Of a DNA stretch of 62,123 nucleotides, positions 15,583 through 62,123 are shown piece after piece. Location: the NCBI RefSeq assembly GCF_003334815.1, contig NZ_QOWO01000026.1, one strand, 5' to 3'. The notes beneath the pieces were generated by a model. That model searched no databases. It saw only the letters and a program-made list of their open reading frames with translations, and was not told where the DNA came from. Source of the DNA: Escherichia coli (GTDB lineage: Bacteria; Pseudomonadota; Gammaproteobacteria; Enterobacterales; Enterobacteriaceae). Made by a program: the position numbers and the translations under genes. Numbering within the stretch: the first letter of the stretch is position 1; every line of letters starts with the position of its first letter.

Positions 15583-16245
<663 letters not shown>

Positions 16246-59675: not shown

Positions 59676-59750
59676 AGCGGGCGTAGTTCAATGGTAGAAC
59701 GAGAGCTTCCCAAGCTCTATACGAGGGTTCGATTCCCTTCGCCCGCTCCA
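59676..59750 (+). tRNA. glyU: tRNA-Gly (anticodon CCC)
   Basis: GCGGGCG acceptor stem, cuUCCCAag anticodon loop, GGTTCGATTCC T-arm, CGCCCGC-T-CCA 3' end. Confidence 0.92.
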
Positions 59751-59864: not shown

Positions 59865-61511
59865 ATGATTCAGCTATCCAGCAGTCACAAACTTCCAGCC
59901 GTCTCCTATCTCTACCAGCGTAACGGCGTCTACTACTTCCGTCTTCGGGTCAGACAATCAAACAATGATAGAATGACCTCAATATCATTACGGACCAAGG
60001 ATAGACGCACCGCTATGGCTCACTCAAGGCACATCAAGGCAGCACTCAAGGCAATACACGCAGACAGACCCAACGCTACCTATGAGGAAATGAGGGAGCA
60101 CCTTAAGGACATCGCTGAGTGTGAACTGTCTATGGGCCGTTCAGATCTCTTTGAGCCTGACATGAGGGATATCTACCGGGACCAATACGGAGAACTTGGT
60201 GAGAGCCTTACCGATGCTCTGGCTAGTGAGCCGCTAAGTATTGACCAGCATCGTTACATCAATGAGGCCCTGAAGGTGCTAAAAGCCTGCATGAGGCGTA
60301 TCGAAGCGGGAGACAGTCAGCCTCTGATAGATTACGTCGATCATTTTAATGATATTGATAGGCAAGATAGCCAAGTAGCCTCTGTGTCCCTATCTGTTAA
60401 TGCTCCAGAAGTAAAACCAGAAGTAAAACCAGAAGTAAAACTAGAAGTAAAACCAGAAGTTACGCCTAGCATTACCATAGCGAGCCTCTTTGAGCAATAC
60501 GAAGCGGAGAATTATCAGAACTGGAAGCCTGCAACCTTAAGGGAAAACAAGGCGTCACACGCTGCGTTAATCGAAATATTCGACCATCTGGGTCTCAATG
60601 CAGACGCTAACAGGGCTGACATGCTTAAGGTCCGTGATGTGCTCCAGCAGTTACCTAGGAACCGTAAGCAGCGCTTCAAGGATGCCCCACTTGCTGACCT
60701 GTTGAGCCGTGAAGATAAGACAGATTGTCTGGATGTCGTTACCATCAACAACAAGTATCTTATTAAGATGGCTGCTGTCTTTAGGTGGGCTGTGCGCAAT
60801 GACTTGATTAAAAAGAACATGACTGAGGGTCTGGAGCTTAAAGTCCCTCAGCGTAAAGCCTCAGGGGCCCGTAACGCCTTCTCTACGGAGCAGGTGGGGC
60901 AACTACTGGTCGCAGCTAAGGCATACTCTCAGAAGACCTCTGGTAAGCCCTACCACTATTACGTTACGGCTTTGGCTGCTATCACTGGGGCGAGACTCAA
61001 TGAAATAGCCCAACTACAGGTCAAAGACGTCAGGACCACTGAGGCGGGAACCGTTTATATTCATATCAATGAAGACGATAGTAGTCTACCCGGTAAGAGC
61101 ATCAAGAACGCTCATAGTGACCGCTGTGTGCCTCTGGTCGATGGGGCCTATGGTTTTATATTGGCTGACTTTATGAGGTTGGTTGAGACCCGTAGAGGCG
61201 CTGATGGTGATGACGCTATGGTGTTCGATGGTCTTCGCCTCATGAAGAACGGTTACGGTGAGCAGGTGAGTAAATGGTTTAATCGGACGTTGTTGCCTAA
61301 AGTCCTCGCAGATCGTAGCGGCTTAGCGTTTCACTCGTTTAGACATACAGTTGCGACCCAGTTAAAACAACATGGGGTCGAGTTGGCGTATGCACAGGCG
61401 ATCATGGGGCATAGTTCAGGGTCTATTACTTACGACCGTTATGCTAAAGAGGTTGAGGTTGATAGGCTGGTCAATGTGATGGCTGATGTTTATAAGGAGA
61501 TTGTGGGGTAA
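59865..61511 (+). CDS. Tyrosine-type integrase of a genomic island inserted next to tRNA-Gly (N-terminal arm-type domain, PEVK-repeat linker, C-terminal catalytic domain)
   Basis: 548 aa. The N-terminus (SYLYQRNGVYYFRLRV) is typical of island/phage integrase arm-binding domains. The C-terminus has R (TGARLNE), HSFRHT and Y (ITYDRYAK) catalytic motifs. It starts 115 nt after the tRNA 3' end. Confidence 0.85.
   Translation: MIQLSSSHKLPAVSYLYQRNGVYYFRLRVRQSNNDRMTSISLRTKDRRTAMAHSRHIKAALKAIHADRPNATYEEMREHLKDIAECELSMGRSDLFEPDMRDIYRDQYGELGESLTDALASEPLSIDQHRYINEALKVLKACMRRIEAGDSQPLIDYVDHFNDIDRQDSQVASVSLSVNAPEVKPEVKPEVKLEVKPEVTPSITIASLFEQYEAENYQNWKPATLRENKASHAALIEIFDHLGLNADANRADMLKVRDVLQQLPRNRKQRFKDAPLADLLSREDKTDCLDVVTINNKYLIKMAAVFRWAVRNDLIKKNMTEGLELKVPQRKASGARNAFSTEQVGQLLVAAKAYSQKTSGKPYHYYVTALAAITGARLNEIAQLQVKDVRTTEAGTVYIHINEDDSSLPGKSIKNAHSDRCVPLVDGAYGFILADFMRLVETRRGADGDDAMVFDGLRLMKNGYGEQVSKWFNRTLLPKVLADRSGLAFHSFRHTVATQLKQHGVELAYAQAIMGHSSGSITYDRYAKEVEVDRLVNVMADVYKEIVG
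60405..60461 (+). repeat. Intragenic 12-bp tandem repeat (ccagaagtaaaa, about 4.75 copies) encoding (PEVK)n in the integrase
   Basis: ccagaagtaaaaccagaagtaaaaccagaagtaaaactagaagtaaaaccagaagtt. Confidence 0.9.
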
Positions 61512-61631
61512 CCAAGCTGTCCACCCCCGGGGAGATTTGCCTTGAGGATGACCATAGTCGATGACCATATTGCTACAGGCCTGTGTGGTCATGTTTTTGA
61601 CTCACGGTTTTCACTACTTGTCAAGGATTTC

Positions 61632-61654
61632 TAATACGACTCACTATAGAGAGA
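61632..61654 (+). promoter_or_regulatory. Near-consensus bacteriophage T7 RNA polymerase promoter (copy 1): TAATACGACTCACTATAG|AGAGA, with predicted +1 G at 61649
   Basis: Positions -17 to +1 match the T7 consensus TAATACGACTCACTATAG at 18 of 18. The +2 to +6 region is AGAGA against consensus GGAGA. The specificity positions -12 to -8 are T7-like (CGACT), not T3-like or SP6-like. Confidence 0.7.
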
Positions 61655-61769
61655 AGGGACACAAAAAGTTTTCTCTCTTTCTCTCTCTTCTAGGACACTT
61701 GCTACTACTACTACAGGCCTGTGTGGTCATGTTTTTGACTCACAGTTTTCACTACTTGTCAAGGATTTC

Positions 61770-61792
61770 TAATGCGACTCACTATAGAGAGA
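61770..61792 (+). promoter_or_regulatory. T7-type promoter (copy 2): TAATGCGACTCACTATAG|AGAGA, with predicted +1 G at 61787
   Basis: This is the second copy of the tandem repeat. It differs from copy 1 by a single mismatch, A to G at -13. Confidence 0.6.
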
Positions 61793-61858
61793 AGGGACAC
61801 AAAAAGTTTTCTCTCTTTCTCTCTCTTCTAGGACACTTGCTACTACTACTACAGGTAG

Positions 61859-61888
61859 CTCTAACTCTAACTCTAACTCTAACTCTAA
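61859..61888 (+). repeat. Hexanucleotide microsatellite (CTCTAA)5, followed by a degenerate ccgtaa unit; (TAC)4 lies just upstream in each 138-bp unit
   Basis: ctctaactctaactctaactctaactctaa. Confidence 0.9.
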
Positions 61889-62046
61889 CCGTAACTTATC
61901 GCATCCTTTCAGGGGCGGGATGACCAATTACAGACACCAAGCGTTCTACTTAAAGTGAATGCTTCCTGTGTGCTCTGGGTCAGTCGATAAGTGAATAGCA
62001 ATAGACATCATATTAAATATGGTCTCTACCCTACAGGGGCTTAACT

Positions 62047-62123
62047 CTGATGAATCCCCTAATGATTTTGGTAAAAATCATTAAGTTAAGGTGGATACAC
62101 ATCTTGTCATATGATCAAATGGT
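62047..62123 (+). mobile_element. Terminal 77 bp of an IS10 end (IS4 family, Tn10-type). The element continues beyond the window.
   Basis: ctgatgaatcccctaatgattttggtaaaaatcattaagttaaggtggatacacatcttgtcatatgatcaaatggt matches, from memory, the IS10 outside-end sequence that precedes the transposase start. The 9 bp immediately before it (ggcttaact) resemble the IS10 target consensus NGCTNAGCN. Confidence 0.7.

Follow-up and report, generated by a model that had tools for sequence, protein, structure and literature searches.

Tandem T7 RNA polymerase promoters in a tRNA-Gly(CCC) island of Escherichia coli: probable induction switch of a putative satellite of virulent T7-group phages

Why should an Escherichia coli chromosome carry a pair of promoters for the RNA polymerase of phage T7? 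The question is raised by a 62,123-nt stretch of E. coli DNA (contig NZ_QOWO01000026.1 of assembly GCF_003334815.1; hereafter the window, meaning the stretch in its entire length), close to the end of which an initial annotation had noted two such promoters behind the integrase gene of an island, which lies at a tRNA-Gly(CCC) gene. Having compared this locus with its relatives, we consider it probable, from sequence evidence, that the tandem promoters are the induction switch of a small tRNA-Gly(CCC) element that is a satellite of virulent T7-group phages.

In order to define the promoters we used the 23-bp T7 class III consensus TAATACGACTCACTATAGGGAGA (-17..+6), with all 17 T7 promoters listed as the comparison set. 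The features concerned are the following.

61632..61654 (-17..+6), + strand: promoter P1, TAATACGACTCACTATAGAGAGA; +1 is the G at 61649; 22/23 against the consensus
61770..61792, + strand: promoter P2, TAATGCGACTCACTATAGAGAGA; +1 is the G at 61787; 21/23 against the consensus, with G at -13 and A at +2
61573..61855, + strand: tandem duplication of the promoter-bearing unit (Tandem Repeats Finder: 138-bp unit, ∼2.1 copies (2.05), 98 % identical)
61859..61889, + strand: (CTCTAA)5 microsatellite, 5.2 copies, in the predicted transcribed leader (Tandem Repeats Finder)

P1 contains the exact T7 promoter 18-mer TAATACGACTCACTATAG (61632-61649, + strand) and P2 its single-mismatch copy TAATGCGACTCACTATAG (61770-61787, + strand; mismatch at -13), against a chance expectation of 0.03 T7-promoter matches at ≤ 3 mismatches in dinucleotide shuffles of the window. 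Thus, the tandem pair is confirmed, as is its specificity: the region from -12 to -8 reads CGACT in both copies, which is the T7 type and not that of T3, K11 or SP6. The A at +2 of P1 and P2 (a GAG start) is also present in the natural T7 promoter phi1.1A, and the -13 G variant seen in P2 is the sole promoter of E. coli AW1.7 (L004). Likewise, the proposed 138-bp unit was recovered independently, AGAGAAGGGACAC lies 3' of both promoter copies, and (TAC)4 and the (CTCTAA) repeat, whose copy number varies among aligned strains, are found in the downstream leader. The promoters follow the integrase gene and point towards an IS10-like element, as described: P1 starts 120 bp 3' of the end of the integrase gene (61511), and the IS10-like end begins 260 bp beyond the promoters, at 62048. 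A consensus scan of the promoter sites found no sigma-70 consensus at P1 or P2, in agreement with the initial annotation; the short 5' hairpin that it had predicted for the transcript did not survive, as it folds no more stably than shuffled sequence (z = -0.68). When searched against 50,697 phage genomes, the promoter repeat and non-coding region gave only short, promoter-sized DNA matches, and comparison of the non-coding part with the T7 genome returned promoter matches only. Other E. coli strains carry one to three tandem promoter units spaced 118-121 bp apart, most of them with the full class III consensus (23/23). The 120-aa ORF (open reading frame) that spans promoter repeats and microsatellites at 61561-61923 is almost certainly spurious, since its frame is built of repeat units and annotated relatives have no such gene.

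A search of 5,426 complete E. coli genomes recovered the non-coding unit from 202 of them, in every case in the chromosome, where glyU and the remnant of the ETT2 secretion system are its neighbours. The isolates originate from patients and from pigs, poultry, pigeons and a giant panda, as well as from river water and sediment. Neither vector backbone nor lac operator, ribosome-site cassette or T7 terminator was found at the island. By its sequence and distribution the promoter unit is natural, and the engineered insertion that had been put forward as one explanation is excluded. The promoter unit proved to be conserved at glyU in these 202 genomes, and homologous islands occur in other genera. 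The exact 23-mer TAATACGACTCACTATAGGGAGA occurs in ∼200 genomes, at 265 chromosomal and 3 plasmid places; because this number of genomes is about that of genomes with the island unit (the two sets being counted separately), most exact T7 promoters of wild E. coli chromosomes probably belong to this element. Two isolate contigs listed in IMG/VR (L027, 3470-3780; L028, 1546-1856) have the same T7-promoter island beside a tRNA array, Met-Arg-Thr-Gly(UCC), in place of glyU, which suggests a second integration site.

The key comparative result is that the promoters of each lineage, all on the same strand, correspond by sequence to those of the T7-group phages that infect its host.

Klebsiella island: AATTAGGGCACACTATAGGGAGA twice, AATTAGGTAGCACTATAGGGAGA and an exact T7 promoter
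Citrobacter, Buttiauxella, Enterobacter and one E. coli/Shigella lineage: CTTAACTATCACTATAGGGAGA, close to Kayfunavirus sites
Pectobacterium islands: four CACTATTGGGAGA-type sites, matching Pectobacterium phages
Morganella and Rouxiella islands: T7-like promoter variants
Pseudomonas-like metagenome contigs: two to three copies of TTAAAAACCCTCACTRTGGCTAC, identical to sites of gh-1-like Pseudomonas phages, some of which are annotated promoters

Exact copies of AATTAGGGCACACTATAGGGAGA occur 8-10 times per genome in K11-like Klebsiella phages, and exact copies of AATTAGGTAGCACTATAGGGAGA 11-12 times in KP32-like phages; in Klebsiella-type metagenome copies of the island the K11, KP32 and T7 cassettes are shuffled between strains. 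Across 24 loci, 46 promoter-core matches fall within 3 kb 3' of the integrase, all on the + strand, compared with three in the 369 kb outside, an 88-fold enrichment. A second set of promoters (set B) stands directly upstream of the first cargo gene. Additionally, L003 has a degenerate third site, CAATACGACTTACTAATAGGAGACACAC, after three 10-bp AATCAATACG repeats (15796-15846), ∼215 bp upstream of its first cargo gene; among T7 promoters it comes nearest to phi4.3 and phi1.6 of class II, from which it differs by a 1-nt insertion and at -7. The island of E. coli EC-16-35 (L090, 633-7028) is 93 % identical over 7 kb to that of Klebsiella pneumoniae ATCC 13883 (L007) and has the same array of K11-, T7- and KP32-type promoters, which implies recent cross-genus transfer and E. 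coli chromosomes bearing promoters predicted to serve Klebsiella phage polymerases. A Klebsiella-type island, K11- and KP32-type promoters included, was seen in ∼110 E. coli genomes.

What, then, would these promoters transcribe? The left boundary of the island lies within the window, in the form of two features.

59677..59750, + strand: tRNA-Gly(CCC) gene (glyU; ARAGORN), the last 20 nt of which (59731-59750) are the core of the left attachment site, attL
59865..61511, + strand: ORF of the island tyrosine integrase, 548 aa; a homologue matches PF00589 at 2.7e-18 and phrog_1 at 1.6e-42

Only attL and the integrase are seen here, since the window ends in the insertion sequence (IS). In intact relatives the 20-nt tRNA end recurs as attR 4.1-6.5 kb downstream, and attL and attR bound discrete elements in 13 loci from Escherichia, Klebsiella, Pectobacterium, Citrobacter, Buttiauxella, Morganella, Enterobacter and Proteus, of the following sizes.

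4.1-4.2 kb: E. coli NT1N31 and AW1.7
5.5 kb: Morganella and C. braakii
6.2-6.5 kb: Klebsiella pneumoniae ATCC 13883, Pectobacterium, Citrobacter, Buttiauxella, Enterobacter and Proteus

Homologues of the integrase, at 64-85 % identity, are found in 20 species-representative Enterobacterales genomes, mostly at tRNA-Gly(CCC). The gene order, all on one strand, is integrase, an optional DUF4145 gene over the integrase stop, promoter set A, ∼500 bp of non-coding DNA, promoter set B, a structured leader, a KilA-N/Rha-type gene, DUF6971 and a capsid-like protein of 330-400 aa. Distant relatives, with integrase and capsid-like proteins ∼30 % identical and a GC content of 0.52-0.61, keep this order in metagenome contigs of 6.4-7.2 kb. 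Family-wide, the elements have the structural features expected of a satellite: an integrase and att sites, a discrete extent far below phage size and no full virion gene set. The 4.1-kb E. coli forms have a DNA-binding protein and a 105-aa membrane protein alone behind the promoters. In the 5.5-kb forms from Morganella and C. braakii (L015, 10610-11242; L022, 10599-11186) serine-recombinase-like and other small genes replace the capsid module.

The capsid-like protein, of HK97 fold and present in most full-length members, has 49 homologues, all unnamed. It found no match among PDB sequences, no similarity to T7 gp10 (hhalign) and no tblastn match in 50,697 phage genomes. DUF6971, which together with the capsid-like gene forms a module present in 113 E. 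coli genomes, consists of a small domain and a long charged helical hairpin with a conserved FG...FG tail; it is a putative scaffold-like protein. A search of the elements for a complete head module (capsid, portal, protease, adaptors and small terminase) returned the capsid-like and DUF6971 genes only. The DUF4145 gene is PD-T7-4 (RAZR; E = 8e-99 in L007), a Zn-finger plus DUF4145 (HEPN) protein that is found in L007 and many relatives and overlaps the integrase stop in most lineages. It is absent from the window's island, where the integrase stops at 61511 and the promoters start at 61632. According to the paper that renamed PD-T7-4, RAZR is an abortive-infection RNase activated by the portal rings of T7 and T3 (PMC13017515); frequent overlap of PD-T7-4 with a gene for an integrase had been noted in the original defence screen (PMC9519451). 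The KilA-N-like protein weakly matches another defence protein, PD-T4-2_B (5e-5).

A second link to T7 lies within the integrase gene itself.

60380..60399, + strand: exact T7 20-mer CTCTGTGTCCCTATCTGTTA, in the integrase ORF (blastn-short E = 5.5e-4, T7 genome ends against all loci)

In T7 the 20-mer (nt 149-168) begins with the 12 final nucleotides of the 160-bp terminal repeat and continues into ATCTGTT (window 60392-60398), a heptamer with no other + strand copy in the T7 genome. At the concatemer junction, T7 RNA polymerase pauses or terminates at ATCTGTT, its class II signal (10.1101/2021.01.11.426313; 10.64898/2026.02.12.705533). In 643 records of T7-group phages the 20-mer occurs about once per genome, at the inner edge of the annotated direct terminal repeats. 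Pausing at the class II site is said, in work by Lyakhov et al. in 1997 and by Zhang and Studier in 2004, to be needed for processing of T7 concatemers. The core of the motif was found in 37 loci of the family, always on the promoter strand, including Pseudomonas-like members with an integrase ∼30 % identical. Its position within the integrase ORF differs: most loci have it ∼515 nt from the start, but L033 and L036 at 30-41 nt. Because the motif is kept at different places of the ORF despite divergence of the integrase, this pattern indicates that it is a DNA-level signal and not a coding constraint. Directly after it in the window (60405-60461) stands a 12-nt tandem repeat, CCAGAAGTAAAA, in ∼4.7 copies, which codes for (PEVK)n; other lineages have a single PEVKP-like stretch there.

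The other half of such a junction is found at the opposite end of the elements. In six lineages, including the 4.1-kb E. coli forms, a module AAAAATCTGAG-N6-TATNTAATAG-N-TTCCCCCATAG lies 222-286 nt before attR, and its TATNTAATAG box occupies the place of the T7 left end TCTCACAG (compare T7 39757-39810). Diverged modules were found in the last 440 nt before attR in L001, L012, L013 and L020, and L033 has an exact T7 16-mer, with the 28-nt spacing of T7, ∼350 nt before the pause site in its junction region. As the halves lie on either side of the att site, integration parts them and excision would rebuild the junction. The T7-type junction halves, together with the capsid-like and scaffold-like genes of the family, are what a satellite that hijacks packaging would carry, and we infer such a function from them. 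A 2026 preprint reports the concatemer-junction sequence of T7 to be a strong, context-dependent sigma-70 extended -10 promoter as well (10.64898/2026.02.12.705533), and from the copy in the integrase gene the host polymerase might likewise transcribe RAZR or the 3' part of the integrase gene.

Furthermore, one family member was recovered in a form detached from any tRNA gene. Contig L033 (6,628 bp) has a 141-bp terminal overlap, equal to the assembler's k-mer length, giving a circle of 6,487 bp, and L034, from an independent assembly, is a 100 % identical circular permutation of it in which the capsid gene is followed by the integrase gene. These contigs imply that a circular form of a family member exists in metagenomes. 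Four further short metagenome contigs with a capsid gene (L030, L032, L036 and L037) were considered as circles and rejected as chromosomal or incomplete fragments.

Taking the promoters, att sites, junction motifs, gene content and fold, promoter-phage match and circular form as read from sequence, we infer that the phage polymerase transcribes the element, that the helper replisome copies it and that infection leads to its excision, packaging and transfer, in the following manner. In the uninfected cell the cargo would be silent, because no sigma-70 promoter is evident. Upon infection by a Teseptimavirus, its single-subunit RNA polymerase would fire from P1 and P2 into the non-coding block and the AT-rich array beyond it; such induction by the helper is what the host-matched polymerase promoters predict. 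In intact relatives, transcription would reach the KilA-N/Rha-type DNA-binding gene, the scaffold-like DUF6971 gene and the HK97-fold capsid-like gene. Excision by the integrase would join the island ends and so rebuild a T7-type concatemer junction from the module near attR and the ATCTGTT pause site in the integrase gene. The helper terminase could then cut and package unit-length copies of ∼6-7 kb, presumably in small capsids made of the element's own capsid protein, and the promoter cassettes would probably also serve replication priming. The early proposal of a satellite or defence island that is silent until a T7-like RNA polymerase arrives is thus favoured by the conservation, the host-matched promoters, the junction signal, the capsid-like gene and RAZR. 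The wider proposition, that there is a group of ∼6-kb capsid-encoding satellites of virulent T7-group phages in, at the least, Enterobacterales and Pseudomonas-like hosts, relying for their entire programme on parts taken from the helper, with swappable helper promoter cassettes, a split junction and often RAZR directed against the helper, appears to us evenly poised between right and wrong.

Several observations weigh against the element being a helper-triggered satellite. Both promoters and elements are known from sequence. The 4.1-kb E. coli and the 5.5-kb Morganella and C. braakii forms are without the capsid module, and the two 5.5-kb loci, L015 and L022, are also without a right-end junction module. 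Matches in IMG/VR (three to an island 27-mer and five to a capsid profile) are all prophage predictions from isolate genomes, with none from a virome, and the circular contigs come from metagenomes of unspecified fraction. In E. coli, a 12-unit alignment showed nearly all of the shared unit, from upstream through the promoter to +22, to be conserved, such that selection on the promoter itself is indicated only by cross-genus comparison. The integrase gene, when integrated, lies upstream of the phage promoters, which leaves the timing of excision unexplained. As for the window's own copy, its promoters depart from the consensus at +2 and -13, and the IS10-like element interrupts it after the conserved block, so that it may be disabled.

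Replication is a further such point. Searches of the elements with Pfam, PHROGs, NCBIfam and PADLOC found no replication gene, so that they must depend on the helper for replication. The E. coli/Klebsiella sublineage shows a strong AT-rich array, which could not be made out in the Citrobacter type; the AT trough of L003 (GC 0.17) starts ∼260 nt 3' of P2, whereas AT-rich DNA follows directly in the T7 origin. As such, an origin function of the tandem promoters and AT-rich DNA is plausible, by analogy, but not established. Between the AT-rich array and the Rha gene of E. coli 21AR0133 (L001, 22640-22990) there are also arrays of short repeats, CTAGGGTCTCTCT (∼10 times), CTCAGTTTTGAGC (∼6 times) and CACCAGCACCACTAG. 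Pentamers recognized by T7 primase (GGGTC, TGGTC and GTGTC) reach z-scores of 5-10 in the E. coli non-coding DNA (∼8 in the L001 arrays), and were set aside, as tandem repeats inflate the value and Klebsiella is unenriched.

The main rival, which we regard as unlikely but far ahead of the remaining ones, is an island of purely defensive function: the phage-polymerase promoters would switch on harmful or decoy cargo, with RAZR alongside, and infection would be aborted without the element being packaged. Candidates for such cargo are the capsid-like protein, as a poison of helper head assembly, the small membrane protein and the KilA-N/Rha regulator. RAZR, a proven anti-T7 abortive-infection protein present in most family members, and the small membrane protein would fit this explanation as well, as do the weak PD-T4-2_B match, the 4.1-kb forms with nothing but their two genes behind the promoters, and the lack of particle evidence among the IMG/VR matches. 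It leaves unexplained, however, why junction halves should be conserved in promoter orientation and split by attP such that only excision rebuilds them, why a circular form exists, and why full-length islands at tRNA-Gly should be of a uniform 6.2-6.5 kb with a scaffold-like and capsid-like pair. Moreover, PLE and P4 combine defence with a satellite life-style, and the two roles are not exclusive.

Much less probable is a decayed remnant of a temperate T7-like prophage without present function, a possibility also raised at the outset. An integrase, T7-type promoters, terminal-repeat-like motifs and an HK97 capsid-like gene would fit a heavily deleted prophage of this kind, and T7-like prophages with integrases are reportedly known from P. 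putida KT2440 and cyanophage P-SSP7. Nevertheless, no genes homologous to those of T7-group phages were found in the elements, and the capsid-like protein is, as described above, unlike gp10 and unmatched among phage genomes. The compact, att-flanked architecture is discrete, uniform in size and recurs with intact att sites in many genera and ∼200 E. coli genomes; single elements carry promoters for two or three phage polymerases, unlike the relic of one phage; and the circular form exists. Only marginally behind it in our estimate, and similarly improbable, is a promoter decoy, by which the sites would titrate or misdirect the phage RNA polymerase with no role in expression or movement. Exact consensus promoters in one to three tandem copies, varying in number by strain, agree with this, but one to four chromosomal sites cannot outcompete 17 promoters per replicating phage genome unless the element is amplified, and all promoters (46 to 0) read in the direction of the genes that follow them, with the second set directly upstream of the first cargo gene. 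Finally, a laboratory construct or contamination, to which an exact 18-mer of the commonest cloning promoter adjoining an IS10-like (Tn10/IS10) end might have pointed, is already refuted by the occurrence of the unit, invariably at one and the same place in the chromosome, in ∼200 wild isolates of diverse host and country, by the lack there of any vector element sought, and by homologues in other genera with non-T7 promoters.

The remainder of the island in the window comprises three further features.

61547..61569, + strand: two GATGACCATA direct repeats, 13 nt apart, just 3' of the integrase stop; iteron-like by sequence
61886..62047, + strand: conserved non-coding block TAACCGTAACTTATCGCATCCTTTCAGGGGCGGGATG ... 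GGTCAGTCGATAAGTGAATAG ... CTACAGGGGCTTAAC, defined by alignments; its 3' end is cut by the IS
62048..62123, + strand: outer end of an IS10-like (ISVsa5, IS4-family) element interrupting the island; 100 % match to plasmid copies; the window ends inside it

The region 39600-61506 of the window, integrase included, is 99.5 % identical to E. coli 21AR0133 (L001), which has three to four copies of the GATGACCATA-type repeats; in L003 they constitute repeat family D9. The non-coding block is nearly identical among aligned E. coli, Rouxiella and Morganella sequences and contains a long-range helix, in which AACTTATCG (61893-61901) pairs with CGATAAGT (61985-61992), backed by compensatory changes in Klebsiella (ACTCATCG/CGATGAGT) and Proteus. 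An Rfam search of the intact island gave no match, and the block is a candidate origin, structured RNA or protein-binding region. In intact relatives it is followed 3' by the AT-rich TTAAAG array, with a GC content down to 0.17 in L003; in the window the IS10-like element takes the place of this array, the junction between island and IS having been placed by comparison with L003. At the insertion junction (62040-62056) the IS follows GCTTAACT. Plasmid copies of the IS continue, after another 31 nt, into a co-oriented transposase gene of the ISVsa5 family. The IS junction, with eight flanking bases, has a 100 % match in two Klebsiella plasmids, which probably reflects the target preference of IS10 and not common ancestry.

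In the literature searched we found no description of such elements or of a satellite of T7-group phages. The RAZR paper and the paper on the original selection, searched by term, make no mention of phage promoters, a satellite role or mobile-element structure, capsid and junction not being among the terms (PMC13017515, PMC9519451). If the element is indeed a helper-triggered satellite, it would stand for a form of parasitism that is new, in which signals meant for the helper's own RNA polymerase and terminase are put to use and promoter cassettes are exchanged to keep pace with local phages; the defence protein RAZR would thereby gain a mobile context. No virulent phage has been studied better than T7, and phages related to it are in wide use for therapy against Klebsiella and E. 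coli; as ∼4 % of E. coli genomes have the element, which also occurs in Klebsiella pneumoniae (type strain ATCC 13883 included), it may possibly affect the outcome for therapy phages, as well as gene transfer. In addition, strains for T7 polymerase expression derived from some wild backgrounds would, judging from the promoter sequences, carry live chromosomal T7 promoters.

Among known satellites, capsid-forming PICIs (cf-PICIs) such as EcCI2 are larger, and their head module is complete, with genes for the portal, protease, adaptors and small terminase. In contrast, the present family has a capsid-like and scaffold-like pair only, in 6-6.5 kb, with a virulent T7-group helper and a mimic of the terminal-repeat junction as its putative packaging signal; cf-PICIs are not driven by promoters of a helper RNA polymerase, as is proposed for the island family. 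In the P4/P2 system, late expression of the satellite needs the helper's transcription machinery, and P4 changes capsid size. P4, however, relies on activator proteins acting on the host RNA polymerase, has its own primase and origin, and exploits a temperate helper, whereas the island family would use the helper's own polymerase via consensus promoters and no replication gene was found in it. The marine VEIMEs, which range from <5 kb to 16.8 kb, are found in virions; they are devoid of major capsid genes and are packaged, in concatemeric form, into heads of full size (PMC9618062). PLE, PICMI and VEIMEs resemble the island family in being small integrative elements that exploit phages. We know of no report of phage-polymerase promoters or of T7 junction mimicry for any of these three.

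Further parallels come from T7 itself. The layout of the island's tandem promoters and AT-rich DNA recalls its primary origin, phi1.1A/phi1.1B, although the spacing in the island differs and no such array could be made out in the Citrobacter type. Plasmids equipped with a T7 origin and concatemer junction were reportedly replicated and packaged by T7 (Chung and Hinkle in 1990), and these have their set of cis elements in common with the island: T7 promoters next to AT-rich DNA, and a junction of terminal repeats that includes the class II pause site. Those plasmids are laboratory constructs that carry the real T7 junction and other genuine T7 DNA, whereas the island is natural and chromosomal, has its own integrase and capsid genes, and presents short mimics of the T7 ends with attP and the 5' end of the integrase gene between them.

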